Virus record (IMG/VR): IMGVR_UViG_3300010376_000113
Span: 1 to 26,841 of that record
Source of the DNA: a virus
Lineage: Duplodnaviria; Caudoviricetes
Strand: one strand, 5' to 3'
Length of the DNA stretch: 26,841 bases
Positions 1,521-19,569 of the stretch are shown here, piece after piece (positions within the stretch are counted from its first letter, which is position 1; each line of letters begins with the position of its first letter). The notes beneath the pieces were generated by a model. It was not told the DNA's origin. It saw nothing but the letters and a program-made list of their open reading frames with translations, and ran no database searches. Position numbers and translations under genes: made by a program.

Positions 1521-1588
1521 GGTCGGGTGGCGGCCCAGTAGACCAGGTAGCCGGCGAGGCAGATGAGCAGGATGGCGGCGAGCGTCAT
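1517..1588 (-). CDS. 23-aa single-TM peptide (MTLAAILLICLAGYLVYWAATRP)
   Basis: Fills the gap exactly, with ATGA and GTGA overlaps to both neighbours; hydrophobic. Confidence 0.65.
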   Translation of the reverse strand: MTLAAILLICLAGYLVYWAATRP

Positions 1589-1794
1589 GGCGGGCAGTCC
1601 CGGGCGGGGCGGTCCATGTCGGGTTTCCAGATGTAGCCGCAGTCGGCGCAGACCATGGCGGTCCGGCCGTGGTAGCGGCCGGTTTGCCAGGTGTGGGCGG
1701 ACAGGTTGTCGTCGGCGAGGCGGCGGCGGACCATCTGGCGGGTGTGCTCTTGCGGATAATTGGGGTTATGCGCGGAATCTGTGCCGCTATTCAC
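1585..1794 (-). CDS. Hypothetical protein with H-x-W...CxxC motif
   Basis: ORF coupled to neighbours; CADCG motif. Confidence 0.6.
   Translation of the reverse strand: MNSGTDSAHNPNYPQEHTRQMVRRRLADDNLSAHTWQTGRYHGRTAMVCADCGYIWKPDMDRPARDCPP
1749..1776. other. dif-like tyrosine-recombinase site 1
   Basis: Minus strand TCCGCGCATAA-CCCCAA-TTATCCGCAAG: 11-6-11 layout with ATAA-N6-TTAT core. Confidence 0.6.
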
Positions 1795-2560
1795 GATCTT
1801 CTTCTTCCTGGCGTCGTAATCGGACCAGCGTGCGCTCCAGCTCGGAGATCCGCTCGGTGCGGCGCTGTCGTTTAGCTGCCTTCTCTTCTTCAGGGCTCAG
1901 CTTTCGGAGCCCGGGAATGACTGGCAGCTTGATCAGCTCGTCGATCTTCGCTCGCTGCTCAGGACTCAACGGCGGGAACCCGCAGCAACGCTGACAATGC
2001 TGGGGGCCGCCGCCCCATGAATGGCCGGCGAATCCGCAGTCGGGATGGTCCCGGCGATATCGCTCGTTCTCGTCAGCCGAACGGTCACCTGTCCACGGCA
2101 CGCCGCAACCGGGGCAAGGCAGCCCGGCTTTCGCTTCCTCGTAGGACATCAGCCGGGCGGGATGCATTCGGCACATGCTGATCATGAATGCCTCTTTGTC
2201 TCGCTCAGCCGCCTCGGTGTCATAGGCGCTCGTCAGCTCTTCTAGCGGCATCCCCAGAACTTCGGCCACAAGTGGCAGTTTGCGCTTGGCCATCATGGGC
2301 CTGTCATGATGAAAAATATTGTTGACGGTCGCAGCGCCCAGCAGCCGTATAGCCTTTTTGCGGTCGAAGTAATCATGGTCGGTAAGGAGATTCGCTGCGT
2401 GGTCGATGAAACAGTCGACAAAGGCCCGGCTGGCGCGGAAGTCGTGTTGTCTGATCCATTGCAGATATTGGGGATGCAGTCGGCCGTTTTCTAAACGCCT
2501 GGGATCATCTAGGCGGGGACGGAACATTCGGGCCAGCTCCGAGGTGCTCTCAGTGGCCAT
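1787..2560 (-). CDS. Hypothetical protein: XRE-like helical segment, Cys/His-rich putative Zn domain, C-terminal coiled coil
   Basis: TVNNIF...LPLVAEVLGMPLEEL; CPGC...H..C...HCQRCC; charged tail; visibly more AT-rich than flanks; start uncertain. Confidence 0.7.
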   Translation of the reverse strand: MATESTSELARMFRPRLDDPRRLENGRLHPQYLQWIRQHDFRASRAFVDCFIDHAANLLTDHDYFDRKKAIRLLGAATVNNIFHHDRPMMAKRKLPLVAEVLGMPLEELTSAYDTEAAERDKEAFMISMCRMHPARLMSYEEAKAGLPCPGCGVPWTGDRSADENERYRRDHPDCGFAGHSWGGGPQHCQRCCGFPPLSPEQRAKIDELIKLPVIPGLRKLSPEEEKAAKRQRRTERISELERTLVRLRRQEEEDRE

Positions 2561-2844
2561 GGCGGCGTTCGAAGTCGTCGAGCATCCGGCGGCTGCGGAA
2601 GGCGAGCCCGAACGCAGATGAGGTCCGGTCGTTCAACGTTGCTCCAGTCGACGGTCTTCAGGTCGCCCAGATTGGGCACGCCAGGCCAGTGTTTCGCCAG
2701 CACCCGACTGGCGTAGGGGTTGATCTCGGATTGCCAGATGACTTTCATCCCGGCCCGTTCGAGGCCGAGGTCAAGTCCGCCGATCCCTGAGCATTCCGAG
2801 CCGACTGTGAGCTGCGGATAATGGGCCTTATGCGGACTAGACAT
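2509..2844 (-). pseudogene. Truncated C5-cytosine DNA methyltransferase (N-terminal motifs only)
   Basis: LTVGSECSGIGGLDLGLERAGMKVIWQSEI...LGDLKTVDW...PDLIC, then diverges before the catalytic GGFPCQ motif. Confidence 0.75.
2811..2838. other. dif-like tyrosine-recombinase site 2
   Basis: Minus strand AGTCCGCATAA-GGCCCA-TTATCCGCAGC, same orientation and core as site 1. Confidence 0.6.
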
Positions 2845-2861
2845 CCTGGCCTGACCCCGAG

Positions 2862-2929
2862 CGCGACAGAAGGCCCCCGTTGGGAGCCTTCTCGTCGTCG
2901 GAACCGCGTGAGCGGGCCGGATCGCAAGT
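2862..2929 (-). ncRNA. Candidate small antisense RNA complementary to the adjacent tRNA
   Basis: 2899-2929 is an inverted copy of tRNA segment 3013-3045; preceded by TGCTACACT and followed by a strong hairpin; ends inferred. Confidence 0.6.
2868..2892 (-). terminator. Terminator-like hairpin
   Basis: AGAAGGCTCCC-AAC-GGGGGCCTTCT (11-bp stem, one G-U); no clear U-tract. Confidence 0.55.
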
Positions 2930-2936
2930 AACGACC

Positions 2937-2945
2937 AGTGTAGCA
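2937..2945 (-). promoter_or_regulatory. Putative extended -10 promoter for the antisense RNA
   Basis: TGC-TACACT; shares CCCT-NN-TACACTG with the element upstream of the tRNA. Confidence 0.5.
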
Positions 2946-2969
2946 GGGACTGTCGCAAGCAGCCCCTGC
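2943..2969 (-). terminator. Hairpin in the tRNA 3' trailer
   Basis: GCAGGGGCTG-CTTGCGA-CAGTCCCTGC (10-bp stem, one G-U). Confidence 0.5.
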
Positions 2970-2984
2970 GGGTTAGTGCTGCGG

Positions 2985-3068
2985 CGGAGCGTGTGGGATT
3001 CGAACCCACGGGACTTGCGATCCGACCGCTTATCAGGCGGTTCCGTTCGGCCTCTCCGGCAACGCTCC
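2985..3068 (-). tRNA. tRNA with anticodon GAU (Ile) on a class II tRNA-Ser-type body; CCA not encoded
   Basis: GGAGCGT-TG-CCG-GAGAGGCCGAA-CGG-A-ACCGC-CTGATAA-GCGGT-C-GGAT-CGCAA-GTCC-C-GTGGG-TTCGAAT-CCCAC-ACGCTCC-G; all stems pair. Confidence 0.92.
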
Positions 3069-3078
3069 GTCACTGAAC

Positions 3079-3084
3079 AGTGTA
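3079..3084 (-). promoter_or_regulatory. Putative -10 element for the tRNA
   Basis: TACACT 10 nt upstream of tRNA G1; no canonical -35. Confidence 0.45.
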
Positions 3085-3101
3085 CTAGGGGGGTGTGACC
3101 G

Positions 3102-3188
3102 TTATCGGGCATGACGTCTAGCCTCCGCGTTGCGGGAGTTGCGCTTACGGCAGACCTTGCAAGAGCGATGCACCCGGTTATCGGTCAT
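3102..3188 (-). CDS. 28-aa basic CxxC peptide, possibly a gene remnant
   Basis: ATGA overlap; MTDNRVHRSCKVCRKRNSRNAEARRHAR. Confidence 0.4.
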   Translation of the reverse strand: MTDNRVHRSCKVCRKRNSRNAEARRHAR

Positions 3189-3751
3189 GGGACCAGCCGC
3201 CCTTGTGTCAGGCAGCGCAGCGGATGCGCCTCGCGGGCCAGGATGTACCGGCCAACGTCGAGCGTGTACCCGTCGGGCGTGCCCGGGCACTCGTGCCAAT
3301 GCCGGCCGTGCATCGAACGCACCTGCTCCCACCACTGCGCCGGGGTGACGTCGACGTACTGGCGGGAGTCGACCGGGGTCAGGCGGCGCACCCGAAAGCT
3401 AACGATGGGATTCTGCGCCTCGAGCTGGCGAATTCGGTGGTTGAGATCGTCGATCTCTTGCTGCACCTCGGGCGACCGGTCGATGCGCCAGGCCACCCCG
3501 AACGCATCGAGGCCGGCGGCGGTAGCGAGTTTCTTGCTGACCTGGACGCCCTTGTCCATGAGATCCTGGCCGACGTCGCGGAATTCCTCGTAGATGGCCA
3601 GCGGGTCCCGGCAGAAGTGGCAGAACTCGGTCCAGTCCCGGTCGGCCACGTCGAGCCGGTGGCCGGTGCGCCGATAGATCTCGGGCAGTTCGTCGCGGTG
3701 AGCGGTCGAGAACGTCAGATCAATGCCGGGATTGCGGCGGTGGCGACTCAT
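3185..3751 (-). CDS. Hypothetical protein, possible PD-(D/E)xK-like nuclease fold with CxxC
   Basis: ATGA overlap with the MTase stop; DVADRDWTEFCHFCRDPLAIYEE pattern; function is inference. Confidence 0.65.
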   Translation of the reverse strand: MSRHRRNPGIDLTFSTAHRDELPEIYRRTGHRLDVADRDWTEFCHFCRDPLAIYEEFRDVGQDLMDKGVQVSKKLATAAGLDAFGVAWRIDRSPEVQQEIDDLNHRIRQLEAQNPIVSFRVRRLTPVDSRQYVDVTPAQWWEQVRSMHGRHWHECPGTPDGYTLDVGRYILAREAHPLRCLTQGRLVP

Positions 3752-4899
3752 CCGATGCGCTCCTTTGCTCGTTTCACGTTGGCGGCGTCGACATCGCAAC
3801 CGATGACATGCCGGCCGAGGGCGTGAGCGGCGGCCAGGGTCGTGCCGGCGCCCATCATCGGATCGCAGACGGTCTGACCGGGCTCGGTGAGCCGCTCGAC
3901 GAGAGTGATGAACCCGTCAAGCCCCTGGCCCCACTCGTGCAGTTCTTTGGCCGCCGCGTTGGTGTCGGCGTTGCGTATCACGTCATCGAAGCGCCGGCCA
4001 CCGCCGTAGACGAGTATCGGTTTCCAGCCGGACTGCACCTGGCGGTAGGTCGAGCTGAACGCCGGGCCGCCCATCAGGTAGCAGGCAGTCCAGCGGTAGG
4101 GGCGAGAGCCTTCGAGCAGCCGGAACGCTTCGGGCAGCCAGGTGTGGCCGTAGAGGATGGCGAGCAGCCCGTCGTCGGTCAGGGTCCGGTGGGCGAACTG
4201 CGCGAGGTCGGCGAGTAGCGGCAGCCATTCCTTGCCGTATGGCGGGTCGGTGATAATCGCGTCAATAGTCGCTGGTTGGACGTCGGATAACGCTTTGCGA
4301 AAGTCGCCGCAGCGCAGATCGATGTTGCGGGGTTCTGTCATCGCATCAACGGTTTTCCTGGCCCGTTCTTGGCGGCGTTCAGCGGCGTTCTGGTCCCGAG
4401 CTAGTCGTCGGGCTCGTCCTTGCGCCAGGCCAGCAACATCGGCCGACTCCCGCTCGAACCACTCGCCTGTGCCATTTGGCGCAGTTCTCTCAGTGTCATC
4501 CTGGTCAGTGGACTTGGCGTTCGAGTCGCCTGTGCCATTTGGCACGGCCACATGATTGTGAACGGTCCTATGCGGCGTACCGGTGGCCTTTCCAATGGCC
4601 CGCGTTGACGCCTGTGGTTGCAGCTCCTTGATGCGTTGGTGGAGCCGTTTCTTCTCGGCCAGGTTGAACGCTGATAGGTCTATTGATCGCAGGAAAAGAT
4701 TCACGTCCGCGTATCCCGGCCCGACCTGCTGCCATCGATCGCCTTCGAGAAGCCATTCCAGTTCCCCGGTCATCCGCTCGAAGCCGTAACCGCTGATGTG
4801 TGCCGACTCAAGCAGGCGGCCGTAGACGATGTTCGGCGCTTCGGCTTGTGAATCCGTGCGCACATTGTCCTGATAAACGGGTGGTTTATCGGTGCTCAC
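3748..4899 (-). CDS. N6-adenine/N4-cytosine DNA methyltransferase (beta class) with N-terminal HTH extension
   Basis: IITDPPY precedes VCDPMMGAGTT; STRAIGKATGTPHRTVHNHV HTH; GTG 4899 overlaps the upstream TGA. Confidence 0.88.
   Translation of the reverse strand: MSTDKPPVYQDNVRTDSQAEAPNIVYGRLLESAHISGYGFERMTGELEWLLEGDRWQQVGPGYADVNLFLRSIDLSAFNLAEKKRLHQRIKELQPQASTRAIGKATGTPHRTVHNHVAVPNGTGDSNAKSTDQDDTERTAPNGTGEWFERESADVAGLAQGRARRLARDQNAAERRQERARKTVDAMTEPRNIDLRCGDFRKALSDVQPATIDAIITDPPYGKEWLPLLADLAQFAHRTLTDDGLLAILYGHTWLPEAFRLLEGSRPYRWTACYLMGGPAFSSTYRQVQSGWKPILVYGGGRRFDDVIRNADTNAAAKELHEWGQGLDGFITLVERLTEPGQTVCDPMMGAGTTLAAAHALGRHVIGCDVDAANVKRAKERIG
4463..4543. repeat. 18-bp in-frame direct repeat in the MTase linker
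   Basis: TCGCCTGTGCCATTTGGC at 4463 and 4526 (encodes PNGTG twice). Confidence 0.8.
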
Positions 4900-5090
4900 T
4901 GTTTCCACATCTTTCGGCTGTTCTCGCGGCGGGAGGTCTCGGCGTGCTCGGCGCAGCAGTACAGCCAGCGGGGCGCCGCGTTCTTGCCGCACCAAATGCA
5001 GGTGCGGGGAATCTTGGCGACTTCTTTGCCGCGGGTTTTGTTGACGCGGTAGTCGTGCAGGTGCTGGGCGACGTCGTTCTCAGTCCTCAT
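4896..5090 (-). CDS. Small Zn-finger protein
   Basis: CIWCG...YCCAEH. Confidence 0.65.
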   Translation of the reverse strand: MRTENDVAQHLHDYRVNKTRGKEVAKIPRTCIWCGKNAAPRWLYCCAEHAETSRRENSRKMWKQ

Positions 5091-5732: not shown

Positions 5733-5959
5733 GACGGCACGTTCAATGTGGCCGCGATCCGTTTCTCCAGCCATCGCTCCACGTCGCTGTTCAGGTAGGC
5801 GATCTTGCGCGGCCCGAGGCGGAAATACGCAGGTCCCTGGCCGTTTCTGCGCCAGTAGGCGAGGGTGTTCACCGACACCGACAACCGTTTCGCAAGGTCG
5901 GCCTGGAGGATCACATCGGCGGGGTCGATAACGCGCCCCGAGTCGGCGTTCGGGGTCAT
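5729..5959 (-). CDS. AlpA/excisionase-family HTH protein
   Basis: DLAKRLSVSVNTLAYWRRNGQGPAYFRLGPRKIAYLNSDVERWL. Confidence 0.85.
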   Translation of the reverse strand: MTPNADSGRVIDPADVILQADLAKRLSVSVNTLAYWRRNGQGPAYFRLGPRKIAYLNSDVERWLEKRIAATLNVPS

Positions 5960-6801
5960 ATGAACGGCCGCCCAGCTGGGTCTTCGTAGGAGGCGGGTTG
6001 GGTGTCGTCGTAGTTGCGGGATTCGGGGAGGTTGTCGTAGTAGTCGGCGGGCGGGCCCTGGTCCCGGGCCGGCGGGCGCCTGGAAGGAGGCGCCGCTTTG
6101 GGCGGCGGGCGGGTCGCCGCCGCGGGCCGGCCCGGGGACTCGGGGGGGGTGGTTGGGGGGCCGCCCGGCGCCTGAGGAATGGCGGCCGCCTCCACGGCCG
6201 CCGACGCCGGGGGCTCCCCGATCTCTCCGGTGTCGTCGTCGACGGTCTGGTAGTCGCCGGTGATGTCGGCGAGGTCGGCGAGGGCTTTGCCGATCTCGGA
6301 GGAGAACCCTCGGCGGAGCGCCATTTTTTCGGCGGTGATGCCGAGCATGTGCGACGGTTTTTCTTTCCAGACCGGTGACACGGGCCGGTAGAACTCGGCG
6401 AATTTGGCGGTGCCGTTGGCGGGCATGTCCCAGCCGTCGACGTGGACCAGGACCCGGGCGGCGTAGGGGGTGCCGTCGCCGGTCCAGACGTCTTCCCATT
6501 CGAGGGGGAGTTTGTTGCCGTTTTTGTCGTAGCGGCGGGGTCCGCACCATTCGGGGCCTTGGATGCCGCGGAGGCGGCCGGTGCGCTGGGCGATGGTGCG
6601 CCGGCCGTCGATGGTGATCTGGATCTGGTTAACGTTGCCGTAGGGGACGAGGGCGATCTCGCGGGCGGGGATGGACAGGCGGAGGTGTCGGGCGGCGGCG
6701 GCGAACACTTCGAGTTCGGCCGGGCTGGCTTTTTGGCCGTACTGGGCGCGTAGGGCGTCAACGACACGGTCCTCGGCCCGGGCTAGGTCGGAGGAGGTCA
6801 T
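5956..6801 (-). CDS. Bet/RecT-family single-strand annealing protein
   Basis: ELEVF...REIALVPY...IQITIDGRRTIAQRTG...WKEKPSHML..TAEKMALRRGF; Pro-rich acidic tail ending PFI. Confidence 0.85.
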   Translation of the reverse strand: MTSSDLARAEDRVVDALRAQYGQKASPAELEVFAAAARHLRLSIPAREIALVPYGNVNQIQITIDGRRTIAQRTGRLRGIQGPEWCGPRRYDKNGNKLPLEWEDVWTGDGTPYAARVLVHVDGWDMPANGTAKFAEFYRPVSPVWKEKPSHMLGITAEKMALRRGFSSEIGKALADLADITGDYQTVDDDTGEIGEPPASAAVEAAAIPQAPGGPPTTPPESPGRPAAATRPPPKAAPPSRRPPARDQGPPADYYDNLPESRNYDDTQPASYEDPAGRPFI

Positions 6802-6986
6802 GCTTTTGGGGTTTTCTCCTGGTAGGTGGCGGCGGCTTGGTGTTGGCGGTAGACGTCGACGGCGATGGCCAGCTCGTCCATCAGCCACCCGTAGCGGTCG
6901 GTGTCGGCGCTGCCGCCGGCCCGGTACCAGTGGGCGAGTTCGGTGGCGGCGTTGACGAGCATGGCGAGGGCTTCGTCGCCGGTCAT
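6798..6986 (-). CDS. Hypothetical protein
   Basis: ATGA-coupled on both sides. Confidence 0.65.
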   Translation of the reverse strand: MTGDEALAMLVNAATELAHWYRAGGSADTDRYGWLMDELAIAVDVYRQHQAAATYQEKTPKA

Positions 6987-7406: not shown

Positions 7407-7775
7407 ATGGCAGCATTGGAATTGCGGCGGTTGGATCCGGAGCCGTGGGGGACCCGGCTGGGCCGGGCCCGCAAAGCGGCCGGCCTGAACGTCCGCCAGG
7501 TCGAGGAGATCCTGTTCCCCCACATTTCTAAGTCGGCGCTGATCCGCCTGGAGGCCCAGCCGGCCCTGCCCGAAGACCGCAAGGACCGGGCCCGGGCGGC
7601 GCTGGTGTTGCTGCTCTACGGGTTCGACGGCGACGATTTCGGCCTGGACCGGGCCGACGTGCCGCCCGCCATCGACCGGCGGGCGCTGGGCCGTCTGGCT
7701 CGCCGCAGAAGGAAGGTGGCGCCGCCGTCTACCAAATGGAAGAAGGCGCGGCCGCTTCTGGTGGTGGCGGCGTGA
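7407..7775 (+). CDS. Immunity repressor (XRE-like HTH) with ssrA-like C-terminus
   Basis: WGTRLGRARKAAGLNVRQVEE...ISKSALIRLE; divergent from the Cro-like gene; ends LLVVAA. Confidence 0.75.
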   Translation: MAALELRRLDPEPWGTRLGRARKAAGLNVRQVEEILFPHISKSALIRLEAQPALPEDRKDRARAALVLLLYGFDGDDFGLDRADVPPAIDRRALGRLARRRRKVAPPSTKWKKARPLLVVAA

Positions 7776-8145: not shown

Positions 8146-8973
8146 ATGCTGCTCGCCGACGCTATCGATCTCTACGTGACGGACCGCCACGCCCGCGGCG
8201 AGATCGGCGCCAACACCGCCCGCCAGGTGGCCTGGCGGCTCGGGCTGATGGCGCGGGCCTGCCCCGGTCTGGACATGCGCGACCTGACCCGGGACCGGGT
8301 GCTGGACTGGCAGCGGACGGTTGGCGGCCAGCGGGCCTCGACGCGGCGGTCGTACCAGTCGACCCTGAAGACGTTCTGTGTGTGGGCGGTGGACGGCGGC
8401 CTGGTCGATCATGATCCGACGGTGCGCCTGGCGAAGGTGCGCGAGCCTCGGCCGGTGGCCCGCCAGCTGTCGGACGGGGAGTTGGCCCGGCTGGCGTTGG
8501 TGTTGCCGGATGAGCGGGCCCGGCTGATCGTGGGGTTGATGCGCCACGGTTTGCGCTGCGTCGAAGTAGCCCGCCTGACGGCGGCGGACTACGACCCGGC
8601 CGGGCCGCGGCTGTGGGTGTGGGGCAAGAACGATCAGCGGCGGCGGGTGCCGGTGCGGCCGTGGCTGGCAATCCTGTTGGACCGGGCGGCCCGGGCCCGG
8701 CCGGTGGGGCCGCTGGTGGGGATCTCGGCGGGGCGGGTGTCGAAGCTGGTGTCGGGCTGGTTCGCGGCGTCGGGGGTGAAAACCGACCGGTATGACGGCC
8801 GGTCCGCGCACGCTTTGCGGCATACGGCGGCGGGACAGGTGTTGGCCGGCTGCGGGAATGTGAACACGGTGAAGGATTTTTTGGGCCACCAGAATCTGGC
8901 GACGACGACCCGCTATCTGCCGGACACGGCCGAGGAGAGCATGGCGGCGGCGATGGCCGCCGGCGGCATCTGA
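8146..8973 (+). CDS. int: Tyrosine recombinase/integrase, XerC/D-sized, no arm-binding domain
   Basis: GLRCVEV (R), WGKND (K), HALRH, LGH, TTTRY; GAGAGGAAG RBS before ATG 8146; 275 aa. Confidence 0.92.
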   Translation: MLLADAIDLYVTDRHARGEIGANTARQVAWRLGLMARACPGLDMRDLTRDRVLDWQRTVGGQRASTRRSYQSTLKTFCVWAVDGGLVDHDPTVRLAKVREPRPVARQLSDGELARLALVLPDERARLIVGLMRHGLRCVEVARLTAADYDPAGPRLWVWGKNDQRRRVPVRPWLAILLDRAARARPVGPLVGISAGRVSKLVSGWFAASGVKTDRYDGRSAHALRHTAAGQVLAGCGNVNTVKDFLGHQNLATTTRYLPDTAEESMAAAMAAGGI

Positions 8974-14870: not shown

Positions 14871-16154
14871 TCATCTCCGGGTGAGGGCGTTGACGTCGCG
14901 GCTGTTGGCGGCGACGGTGTCGAACAGGCCGCGCTGGGGGCGGCCGACGGTCAAAGAGACGTCTTCGTTGCCGTCGTCGCCGATGTCGAAGGTGAGGCCG
15001 AGAACCCGGACGGTGGTGTTGACGGCCAGCCGGCCGGAGTTGACGACCAGCGGCACCACGTCGCCCATGTTGGGCCGGCCGGTCGAATAGGTGCCGGGCC
15101 GCAGCGTCAGCGCGTAGGTGGGGATCAGGGTGCCGTTGAGGGCCAGGTCGCCGGCGGCTTTGTCGTCGAGGGTGGATTGGACGGTGACGTCGGCGGCGTT
15201 GTCGTCGCCCTGCCACAGGCCGACCGGGTTGACGGTGATGTTGTTGGCGTCGGCGTTCCAGCGTTCGGAGAACAGCTGGGCGGCGGCCGGGTCGGAGGAG
15301 CCGTTGTTGCCCAGGACCCGCCAGTAGTTGCCGTAGGAGCCGGAGTCGACGGTGCGGGTCAGGGCGGCGACGGTGTTGCCGTACACCAGTTCCAGGTCGG
15401 CGCGGGTGACACCCTGGTAGGGGTAGTAGATGTTGAGACGGTCGGCGGTGGGGTCGACGGCGTAGTCGAACCCGCCGATGACTTTGGACAGCTCGTCGAA
15501 GGCGGTGCCGATGTTGGTGCCGGGATAGTAGGTGCGGTCCCGGTTCTGGCCGGACGGGCCCCGGGCGGTGCCGTTGGGGGCCACCGGGGTGGCGGTCAGG
15601 GGGATGTAGGAGCCCGGCCCGAAAAAGGTGTTGTCCATGGCGTGGGTGTATTTGGCGAACGACAACAGGTCGGCGGCTATGTCGTCCTGGTCTTCGGCGA
15701 TGTAGGGGGCGACGATGTTCAGCATCCGGCGGGACATGACCGCCGCATAGTCGTGGCAGGTGAAAGTGACGGTGTGGGTCTGTTCGGAGATGGTGTCGGC
15801 GGACTGGGCCACGATGCCTTTGAACATGATCCGGTCGCCGCCGGCGGTCTGATCCCAGCGCCAGGCGATCACGTCGGTGGCGAGCTCGGTGACGAGAGCG
15901 GCGGTGGGGTGGTGGCCGTCGAGAGAAAAGGTGAGGGTGGCCGGGGTGCACCAGGCCTGTTCGAGTTTGCGGCCCGCCGCGCCGGTCAGCTCGGTGATCA
16001 TCGTCTGGCTGTTCGACACCCCGTCGGCGAAGGCCCGCTGGTGGGCGGTGAGCCGCCACAGGCCCCGCCCGGCCGGCAGCGGCACGGGCGCGGACCGGGC
16101 CTGCCGCGGCGTGTCGGGCGGGCCTGCGGGGGTCCGGCCGGGCGGCCAGCTCAC
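14871..16154 (-). CDS. Minor tail / baseplate hub (Tal-like) protein
   Basis: Position after Dit; GTGA-coupled start at 16154; GDVV...VRVLGLTFDI C-terminal motif. Confidence 0.75.
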   Translation of the reverse strand: MSWPPGRTPAGPPDTPRQARSAPVPLPAGRGLWRLTAHQRAFADGVSNSQTMITELTGAAGRKLEQAWCTPATLTFSLDGHHPTAALVTELATDVIAWRWDQTAGGDRIMFKGIVAQSADTISEQTHTVTFTCHDYAAVMSRRMLNIVAPYIAEDQDDIAADLLSFAKYTHAMDNTFFGPGSYIPLTATPVAPNGTARGPSGQNRDRTYYPGTNIGTAFDELSKVIGGFDYAVDPTADRLNIYYPYQGVTRADLELVYGNTVAALTRTVDSGSYGNYWRVLGNNGSSDPAAAQLFSERWNADANNITVNPVGLWQGDDNAADVTVQSTLDDKAAGDLALNGTLIPTYALTLRPGTYSTGRPNMGDVVPLVVNSGRLAVNTTVRVLGLTFDIGDDGNEDVSLTVGRPQRGLFDTVAANSRDVNALTRR

Positions 16155-17740: not shown

Positions 17741-19569
17741 ACCCCCTGGGTTTGGACGACCCAGGCGGCTTTGCGCATGAACGCCTCCACGTCGACGTCG
17801 CTCGAGAAGTGGGCGTGCTCGATGTGCACGGCCGGGCCGGCCCGCTTCCCGGCCGGGATGACGGTTTCGCCCTGGTGGGCGTAGATCATGCCGGTGTAGG
17901 GGACGACGCCACCCTGCTGGAAGGACAGCACGGGGATTTGGGGCATGGCGAAACCTTGGCCGCCCAGGCCGGGCACCCACGACGGCACTTTGAACGACAG
18001 CGAGCCGACGGTGTGGTTCCAGGCCCAGGCGATGGCGTTGAACACCCACTCGAACGGGGTGGCGATGGCTTTGACGACGTCGACGAACACCTGGCCGACG
18101 GTGCCGACGGTCGACCCGAACCAGTTGACCACCGCCGCCCAGCCGTCCTCGATGCCGCCCCACACGGCGGCGAAGGCGTCGATGATCTGGTCGCGGTATT
18201 TGTAGATGAAGTAGACGGCGGTGGCGATCGGGCCCAACAGGATGGACAGCAGCAGCGGCCAGTTGTTCCTTATCCAGTCCCACACGTCGGCCACCGCGTC
18301 TTTCATGAGCCGCCAGATGGTGGTCCAGTTGCGGTAGATCAGGTAGGCGGCCACACCCAGAGCGGCCAGGGCGGCGATGATCAGCAGGATGGGGGCCAGG
18401 GCCAGGCCTTCGGAGACCGCCGCGGTGTCCTCGGCGGCGGCCATGGCTTCGGTGGCGGTGGCGGCCGCCTCGGTGGTTTTGGTGAACGTGCCGATCACCG
18501 ATTTGGCCGCGGTGGTGATCCCGCCCAGCACGGCCATGGCCGAGCCGGCGGCGGTGATGGCCGGCCCGTACTTTTGGCCCAGGGTGGCGGCGGTGTCCTC
18601 CAGGTGGGCTTTGATGGCGGCGATGTGGCCGCCGAAGGTGTTCGCCGCCGCCGACGCCTGCCCGCCGAGTTTTTGGGACAGCTGGTCGATGGCGGTGCCG
18701 TGGTTGGTGGTGGCAGTTTTGGCGTCTTCCTGGGCCTGGGCCAGCGTTTTGTGGGCGGCGGTAGCCGCGGCGGTGGCGTCGACCACTTTCTGCTGGGCGT
18801 CGCGCAGGCGGATGGCTTCGGTGACGGTCAGATGTTTTTTGCCGGCGTCGATGGCTTCGATGTCGGCCAGGTGCTGTTTGGCGCGGGCCAGGGCCCGGTC
18901 GGCGGTCTCGGCCCGGGCGGTGTCTTTGGCGACGGTTTTGGTGGCGTCACCGGTTTTGGCGACGGTGATCCCGAACTCTTTCAGGATTTTGCCGGACCCG
19001 TTGTACACCTTGCCGAGCTGGGTGGCGGCGGTGGCCAGGTCTTCGTGTTTGGCGGCGGCCAGATCGGCGGTGGTGTTCAGGTACGCCAACGCTTTGGCCG
19101 GGTCGCCGGTGGCCTGGGTCAGGATCCGCAGGGCGTCCTGAGTCTGGTTGGCGCTATGCCCGAACCGCTCCTGGTATTTGATCGCCTCCTCGACCCGTTT
19201 GGCGTAGTCCTCGTAGGAGGCGCCGGTGGCCTCCACGGCGGTCTGGAGCTGCTGGTGGGCGGCCTGGTCTTTGGAGCCCAGCGCGGCCAGGCCCACACCG
19301 ACACCGGCCAGGGTGCCGCCCACCCCGATCATGGCCGCCCCGACCTGTTTGCCGTGTTTGGCGATCTGCTCGAGGGCGGTGTCGACACCGTCGAGGGCTT
19401 CGCCGAACGGGCCCAGGATCCCGGTTCTGTTCAGCGCCGCCAGCGTGCCCGAGAACGCCTCCTGCAGGCCTCGGGCGGCGCCGTGGCCTCGGTCGCCGGC
19501 GTCTTTGAACGCTTTGGACAGGCCGGACAGGTCGCCGAGGACCCGGACGACGACCGACGGGCCGGCCAT
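17737..19569 (-). CDS. Tape measure protein
   Basis: 610 aa, Ala-rich helical, periodic W/F repeats and hydrophobic segments; follows the chaperone genes. Confidence 0.9.
   Translation of the reverse strand: MAGPSVVVRVLGDLSGLSKAFKDAGDRGHGAARGLQEAFSGTLAALNRTGILGPFGEALDGVDTALEQIAKHGKQVGAAMIGVGGTLAGVGVGLAALGSKDQAAHQQLQTAVEATGASYEDYAKRVEEAIKYQERFGHSANQTQDALRILTQATGDPAKALAYLNTTADLAAAKHEDLATAATQLGKVYNGSGKILKEFGITVAKTGDATKTVAKDTARAETADRALARAKQHLADIEAIDAGKKHLTVTEAIRLRDAQQKVVDATAAATAAHKTLAQAQEDAKTATTNHGTAIDQLSQKLGGQASAAANTFGGHIAAIKAHLEDTAATLGQKYGPAITAAGSAMAVLGGITTAAKSVIGTFTKTTEAAATATEAMAAAEDTAAVSEGLALAPILLIIAALAALGVAAYLIYRNWTTIWRLMKDAVADVWDWIRNNWPLLLSILLGPIATAVYFIYKYRDQIIDAFAAVWGGIEDGWAAVVNWFGSTVGTVGQVFVDVVKAIATPFEWVFNAIAWAWNHTVGSLSFKVPSWVPGLGGQGFAMPQIPVLSFQQGGVVPYTGMIYAHQGETVIPAGKRAGPAVHIEHAHFSSDVDVEAFMRKAAWVVQTQGV

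Follow-up and report, generated by a model that had tools for sequence, protein, structure and literature searches.

Dif-like sites at gene starts as candidate joints of an ordered row of exchangeable accessory genes in soil phages

Introduction

Where the mosaic structure of phage genomes comes from is an old open question. Mosaicism is usually ascribed to illegitimate recombination, an answer that, in the available text of PMC3029335, is the usual one because boundary sequences are rarely found. The locus described here poses the question in a concrete form: two 28-bp sites resembling the dif targets of Xer recombinases lie inside reading frames at the starts of neighbouring genes, and we asked what they do there. 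The DNA analysed, hereafter the window, is the whole of virus record IMGVR_UViG_3300010376_000113 (26,841 bases). Pfam and PHROG matches identify terminase, portal, capsid, tail and endolysin genes, a short tyrosine integrase, RecT and methyltransferases; the window is a temperate HK97-type siphophage, and its G+C content, the relatives of its integrase and its dif arms point to a host among the Acidimicrobiia or another group of actinobacteria.

Results

Two dif-like sites lie in frame behind start codons

2811-2838, minus strand: site B, dif-like 11-6-11 site, spacer class GGCCCA, in frame behind ATG 2844
1749-1776, minus strand: site A, dif-like 11-6-11 site, spacer CCCCAA, in frame behind GTG 1794

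Both sites of the first-pass annotation were reproduced at these coordinates, 1062 bp apart on the minus strand, and each does stand just after a start codon and is read in the same register, as that annotation had it. On the circular map they fall in the early region, a few kb before the terminase gene. The reading frame leading into site B from upstream meets its stop codon in the opening bases of that site's upstream arm. The pattern ATAA-N6-TTAT, picked after the sites had been seen, has exactly two matches in the window and none in 100 shuffles, in agreement with the earlier statement that the window holds no third. A weak site-like start at 5060-5087 (minus strand) resembles the TGACGT class described below, with a score at the level of the controls. 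When viral sequences were scanned with the 15 bases that the window's sites share, 64 matches were returned, about the chance level, and none lay in a similar array; a promoter and terminator scan gave nothing above chance, and no RNA data are listed among the runs that hold the region.

The enclosed segment is chimeric and is absent from one soil contig

2614-2844, minus strand: 5' fragment of a C5 cytosine methyltransferase gene, 77 codons, beginning in site B (PF00145, E 7e-9)
1787-2560, minus strand: ORF of 246-257 aa with a Cys-rich C-terminal half and a weak Cro/C1 HTH lead
1585-1794, minus strand: small zinc-finger-like gene read through site A, 69 aa, frame from GTG 1794
1751-2812, no strand: 1062-bp segment absent in soil run X2 (one contig, depth 4.3)

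The DNA between the sites had been called AT-richer and chimeric, and both descriptions hold: its G+C content is 60.7%, against 66.1% and 68.0% in the 1-kb flanks, and the 77-codon start of a methyltransferase is followed by the unrelated ORF of 246-257 aa. The methyltransferase fragment is 70-85% identical to full-length homologues up to codon 77, where it is broken off after the motif-I region, and its frame continues as unrelated sequence to 2509; named phages match the window region at this fragment only. The ORF that follows has no Pfam or PHROG match and ends in a stop that overlaps GTG 1794, the start codon reading into site A. Two other proteins resemble it at 37-39%, its Atlas score of 0.83-0.85 serves as a lead only, and its model has a pTM of 0.49; of the loci found with the 246-aa ORF, L116 is the window itself and L117-L119 are non-phage contexts without sites. 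For the zinc-finger-like gene the search returned no viral locus and 13 proteins, with the motif at the start in none of the nine that were read. Further along the same strand, at 705-1520, an HNH endonuclease is fused in frame to a VRR-NUC domain.

Two scans for a site together with a methyltransferase gave 4 and 18 matches, none of which, in a phage of high G+C, placed a site in frame where a methyltransferase gene begins, and none of 51 viral loci with the methyltransferase carried a site at the gene start. At the protein level, 4 of 14 methyltransferase N-termini (from the 120 homologues listed) read [HD][NK]xxY and one nearly does, a count to which little weight is given, the query itself having held the motif. 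The slot is probably a broken cassette, in which the start of a methyltransferase was fused to a later gene by ordinary internal deletion; it would have begun as a methyltransferase cassette like that of record G066. Our first idea, that the insert was a permuted circle from one donor, gave way to this slot model and now seems the less likely of the two.

The region is present in two soil runs, X1, which may be the run the window came from, and X2, from another sample and another study. One X1 contig spans 1538-3009, and no empty or circular form was found in the 68% of that run that was read. A 1305-bp contig of X2 joins 1750 to 2813 and omits exactly 1062 bp; it differs from the window at 7 positions over 923-1750 and at none over 2813-3289. 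The first-pass annotation had advised looking for a 1062-bp excision, and this contig represents such a form, its joint lying inside the sites. The joint falls within 10 shared bases (1751-1760 and 2813-2822), the longest shared run, and since the index was built on words of 31 letters, longer than this run, collapse of a repeat appears unlikely. Site B contributes its upstream arm and spacer to the joined form and site A its downstream arm, so placed that the zinc-finger-like gene would start at ATG 2844 in a 65-codon frame. The two spacers involved are unlike at 3 of 6 positions, which include the base second from the joint. With two alleles to compare, the absence is probably a later loss, a gain in the window's lineage being less likely; a loss could have taken one pair of strand exchanges at the edge of the spacer, completed by replication. 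Elsewhere, at 8802-8916, within the part of the integrase gene for the catalytic end, the X2 strain departs from the window at many third positions, the rest being near-identical, which suggests a recombination patch.

Related phages carry rows of co-oriented sites

Relatives were gathered by capsid protein; the best 80 of 207 were taken and 50 of those 80 were scanned whole. The exact core was present in 9 of the 50, at 17 sites, with none in the reversed control, and among near-complete relatives arrays occurred in 8 of 28 and were absent from 20. A profile built from 19 of the sites (those of the exact-core relatives and the window), used together with scans for two spacers, brought the collection to 78 sites in 23 records, with 2-6 sites per record and no match in 402 kb of control sequence; 12 of the 23 records were found through the two-spacer scans and are to that extent spacer-selected, and L217 and the low-G+C or duplicate loci of those scans were excluded.

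An ATG or GTG stands in frame no more than 10 codons upstream at 72 of the 78 sites, whereas each of the five remaining frames gave 4-18. Judged by profile and by reading frame, every array site points the same way, with near-symmetric arms that leave the C/D direction ambiguous. In 22 of 51 pairs of adjacent sites, the frame opened at one site ends in a stop right at the border of the following one (0 and 3 in control frames), with the stop at arm base 2 in 13 cases and at arm base 4 in 4; a cassette is thus often one gene that supplies the next start. The earlier proposal that a crossover would keep the frame and hand a start codon to the next gene is consistent with both counts. Outside these phages, a genome scan with the window's core gave five single matches in unrelated phyla and no arrays in the three genomes checked. 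At the loci L120-L124 the core has one close copy each, the genomes belonging to Planctomycetota, Kiritimatiellia, Pyrinomonadaceae, FCPU426 and Desulfobacter, with 1-2 such sites per genome in the three.

Spacers keep one order while the cargo between them turns over

That the two spacers of the window differ had been counted against the sites; they do differ, but far from being a weakness the spacers proved to be the organising principle of the arrays. With 4 isolated sites left out beforehand, 14 spacer pairs occurred in at least two records, and their 53 observations contained no conflict of order, the minimum in 20,000 shuffles being 6. No array of the 22 repeated a spacer, against 6.8 expected. 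The main run reads TCCGGC or TCGTGC, TGACGT, CGGCAC, CCCCGG, GGCCCA, GCCCAC; the order holds without the three close records (35 observations) and spans terminase clades at 71-79% and 31-40% identity to that of the window. The site B spacer is present in 8 other records, partly through selection on the spacer. The site A spacer CCCCAA looks like a variant of the GCCCAC/CCCCAC class, which follows GGCCCA in relatives, and if this assignment to the last class is right, the window's own order, GGCCCA then CCCCAA, fits the main run.

The genes within a slot are seldom alike. Related pairs of same-slot cargo numbered 1 of 28 for CCCCGG-GGCCCA, none of 10 for GGCCCA-GCCCAC, none of 10 for CGGCAC-CCCCGG and 1 of 6 for TGACGT-CGGCAC, and the outer arms of same-spacer pairs were about as alike (6.0 of 12) as those of other pairs (5.6). 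Conversely, one cargo can occupy different slots, as in G056 and G062 (80% over 450 bp). Among the 58 site-started ORFs of at least 45 aa, 9 belonged to DNA-modification families (C5 and N6 methylases, MT-A70, Mom), others matched HNH, HTH_17, Vut_1 or DUF7694, and 44 had no match.

Homology between close phages breaks inside the sites

The most complete exchange was seen between G019 and G058, which share a block at 99.2% up to position 21 of the TGACGT site and return to homology 4 bases before the CCCCGG site; between these points one carries a tRNA module and the other a methyltransferase, a CGGCAC site and a small gene. This difference is a double-crossover replacement. Module replacement at identical spacers was likewise seen in three further pairs: the 95.6% block of G062 and G063 ends at position 22 of CCCCGG, and homology returns 27 and 48 bases inside the sites that follow, which are unlike; G063 and G066 have DNA in common up to GCCCAC; and G058 and G065 have the TGACGT cassette in common with unrelated DNA upstream.

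Over all comparisons, 48 of 146 alignment ends lay within 10 bases of a site, against 13.3 expected, the ends being non-independent and their count inflated by alignments that extend into shared sites. Together with the X2 joint and the G019/G058 swap, these ends bear out the expectation that a motif scan of related phages would find gene content switching at the sites, and with it the view of the sites as cassette joints. Ten pairs were homologous on one side only; in 5 of them the spacer was the same (background 11%) and in 5 it was unlike, which, with the same cargo turning up in different slots, indicates that strict spacer matching is not the sole route.

The row continues upstream of site B

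4866-4896, minus strand: third site, 9-bp spacer (ACCCGT class lengthened by one codon, 3 bp), starting an N6-methyltransferase fusion gene (3748-4899)
3161-3188, minus strand: half-site, upstream arm only, behind an ATG (arm score 14.8)
3085-3112, minus strand: half-site, upstream arm only, behind an ATG, heading a tRNA module
2983-3068, minus strand: predicted tRNA gene with a long variable arm and GAT anticodon, cassette cargo

The 6-bp form of the ACCCGT class is the first spacer in the array of G057. Centres stretched by exactly 3 bases, with the frame kept, occur both at 4866-4896 and in locus L251 at about 18985-19010 (G021), and are possibly slipped crossovers. The half-site at 3161-3188 is probably a decayed site; half-sites are the weaker evidence, the scoring threshold of 9 having also given 3 and 7 control matches. 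The tRNA module headed by the half-site at 3085-3112 follows a full site in G019 and G056.

Long-variable-arm tRNAs with a G discriminator were found at 2983-3068 of the window (minus strand), at 2117-2202 of L249 and at 6889-6977 of L317, and through each an open frame of 91-98 codons passes from the site or half-site. Their anticodon is GAT (Ile) in the window and G019 and CAT in G056. The long variable arm and G discriminator make up what we take to be a serine-type tRNA body, so that the GAT-anticodon tRNA could misinsert serine. ARAGORN draws these tRNAs as 7/5; the allo-tRNAs that misinsert serine have 8/4 or 9/3 stems in the portion of PMC5389517 available.

Candidate enzymes

8146-8973, plus strand: short tyrosine integrase, 275 aa (PF00589)
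5956-6888, minus strand: RecT-family annealing protein (PF03837)

As drivers of such an array the first-pass annotation had named the host's Xer or the phage's own short tyrosine recombinase, and the latter fared poorly. Among near-complete relatives, an integrase of the window's type occurs in 4 of the 8 with arrays and in 6 of the 20 without (p=0.40). Relatives 46-75% identical to it are found in 7 of the 22 other site-bearing records, and the closest named ones, at about 32%, are ordinary integrases of Gordonia and Mycobacterium phages. PF00589 has no match in four records that bear arrays: G008 (terminal repeats, 100%), G060 (100%), G027 (95%) and G055 (83%). PF03837 was matched in 8 of 20 site-bearing records, while seven near-complete array-bearing records gave no match in a search for this family only. 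A crude screen of 14 against 20 genomes, in which antisense frames were kept, found no ORF family confined to array-bearing genomes. Upstream of the integrase and on the same strand, a repressor-like ORF (7407-7775, plus strand) without a Pfam match ends in LVVAA. This layout of repressor and integrase recalls the integration-dependent immunity of mycobacteriophages.

The arms themselves resemble targets of host Xer. Upstream arms match XerC arms of actinobacterial dif sites, and in two sites are identical to the Mycobacterium smegmatis arm; the dif arms used for comparison are themselves predictions, taken from the available part of PMC3025954. Measured against this predicted actinobacterial dif, as distinct from the host's own, 36 of 78 sites have an XerC-like core on both arms and 3 of 78 have the start of an actinobacterial XerD arm on either side, so that the early remark that both arms are XerC-like, in place of XerC plus XerD, is well founded. 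Likeness to the published arms in the two orientations averaged 12.0 and 12.4 of 22. The lone site of G010 matches 21 of 22 arm bases of published dif as given in that source, combining the Arthrobacter XerC arm with the XerD arm of Acidimicrobium ferrooxidans. It lies in L328 at 15621-15869 (minus strand), where it is read in frame as a gene begins and precedes the terminase by 3.8 kb. This dif copy is a possible founder of the arrays, or possibly a dimer-resolution site. By exclusion and resemblance, host Xer is the favoured candidate.

Discussion

The answer towards which we lean is that the sites are neighbouring joints of an ordered dif-like row, at which phages lose or swap accessory genes, likely through a Xer-type tyrosine recombinase, probably that of the host; it takes as its ground what is directly observed, namely the anatomy and frame of the sites, the fixed order of spacers, the turnover of cargo and the breakpoints inside sites. 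A cassette would begin with one site's downstream arm, end with the spacer of the following site, and so comprise a gene body, its stop codon and the next start codon. When two phage genomes meet in one cell, a crossover at identical 6-bp spacers would join them, and a second crossover at another matching pair would resolve the cointegrate, exchanging in register the genes between two spacer classes. Because the cassette carries both a stop and the next start, every new combination would be in frame and translationally coupled, and because no array repeats a spacer, self-deletion should be rare. Rare one-edge exchanges or microhomology events would delete slots and move cargo between them. Tentatively, and with rather more doubt than belief, we extend this picture to a guild of small actinobacterial soil phages with a multi-slot exchange code, in which host XerC, without a canonical XerD arm and with no phage enzyme, would swap anti-restriction modification genes and foreign-anticodon serine-type tRNAs, in register and in frame, between distant phages.

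Much of the same evidence could be accommodated if the sites were boundary linkers, short conserved sequences recombined through homology by annealing proteins such as RecT. Sites with the same spacer share at least 16 bases and would therefore pair best, and the 1062-bp loss would be a 10-bp microhomology deletion, as is suggested by the position of the X2 joint in the longest shared run. The window does encode a RecT, the family recurs among site-bearing records, and a kept order is also predicted by this idea, which is a published one in the available text of PMC3029335. What it leaves unexplained is the fixed two-armed core with its 6-bp centre, the match to dif arms and the sharing of the centre alone within a class, and the seven near-complete array-bearing records without a PF03837 match speak against it as well; we consider it unlikely. 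A site-specific alternative would dispense with the host and have a single phage or element recombinase, for instance the 275-aa integrase, act as a homotetramer, in trans where its gene is absent. Symmetric arms suit one enzyme, and the integrase is Xer-sized with relatives in other site-bearing records; its lack of association with arrays, the arrays in records with a different integrase or none, the outcome of the crude ORF-family screen and its kinship with ordinary phage integrases make this distinctly improbable. Operators bound by a dimeric regulator where genes begin, with breakpoints reflecting selection for whole genes, would agree, as a reading of the sites, with their palindromic form, their co-orientation at the start codons of one transcription unit and the presence of HTH genes. 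Mosaic borders, moreover, generally lie at gene ends. Yet operators would hardly need centres that are unique within each genome and still conserved to the letter, and in one order, among phages whose genes are unrelated; the breakpoints lie within the site, by which point the gene has already run for several codons, and no regulator family tracked the arrays in the crude screen. We give this last explanation very little credence.

Should the favoured reading be right, that of an ordered row worked by host Xer, the dif-module shuffling known in Acinetobacter plasmids would reach tailed phages and coding sequence, and the symmetric XerC-like sites would raise the matter of how Xer manages without a canonical XerD arm. 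Mosaic boundaries take the form here of defined sites of 28 bp that carry a spacer code and exist in natural alleles from before and after a change, and the share of DNA-modification families in the cargo hints at a purpose. Our searches of the open-licence literature turned up no description of tailed phages with dif-like arrays that are both ordered and in frame.

The closest known system, as had been suggested at the outset, is that of the pdif or xrs dif modules of Acinetobacter Rep_3 plasmids, which have in common with these arrays the 28-bp layout and replacement at identical spacers. According to the available parts of PMC11705084 and PMC13141974, Xer joins replicons there when the centres of the two sites are identical, but not when they are unlike, and the module is exchanged by a second crossover; several 11-6-11 ATAA-N6-TTAT sites lie between accessory genes, module ends carry unlike spacers, and single modules are replaced with the flanking spacers kept. 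The settings differ, Acinetobacter plasmids in one case and a tailed phage of a probably actinobacterial host in the other. Neighbouring pdif sites, as described in those parts, alternate between C/D and D/C, whereas here all read as direct repeats by frame and profile, the near-symmetric arms giving no clear C/D direction; and pdif has a distinct XerD arm, whereas here arms are mostly symmetric and XerC-like, with the lone G010 site the one that combines XerC and XerD arms. Only here do sites lie inside coding frames, with start and stop codons on the outer arm, and only here does one spacer order extend across distant phages; neither the phrase 'in frame' nor the word 'phage' occurs in the available text of PMC13141974. 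Since a distinct XerD arm was not found, we do not file the arrays as pdif modules, although they would work alike.

Elements integrated by host Xer without a recombinase of their own (IMEX: CTX-phi, VGJ-phi, TLC-phi) offer a parallel for the X2 joint: in the available parts of PMC9226527 and PMC4246890, one pair of strand exchanges at one spacer edge is finished by replication, a one-edge exchange that yields a joint of this type, and a degenerate XerD arm can work, as in TLC-phi. IMEX, however, bring one site into a chromosomal dif, whereas here several sites divide the phage's own accessory region; records hold 2-6 of them, the window has its own integrase and no prophage junction was seen. 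Integration of these phages probably runs through the separate integrases, unlike that of IMEX. The boundary-sequence linker model of PMC3029335, in its available text, is alike in its short conserved junction sequences, and differs in that the sites here have recombinase-site anatomy and position-specific centres.

Integrons, the other system that had been invoked, resemble the arrays in forming a row of expressed single-gene cassettes, and they part company in that the order of joints here is fixed and not shuffled, so that the integron-like reading found no support. Integrons with attC cassettes are reportedly known in phages. An attC site is 55-140 bases of folded single strand, whereas conservation here is limited to 28 bases; and in place of an IntI gene next to the array, the window's sole PF00589 gene lies 5 kb away and is phage-integrase-like, with some arrays lacking PF00589 altogether. 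The nearest likeness in design is engineered: in recombinase-mediated cassette exchange, heterospecific end sites permit a swap and not an excision. That is a laboratory method, whereas the exchange proposed here would be natural, multi-slot and in frame, and a mutually exclusive, frame-keeping set of sites of this kind could in turn serve as a gene-assembly tool.
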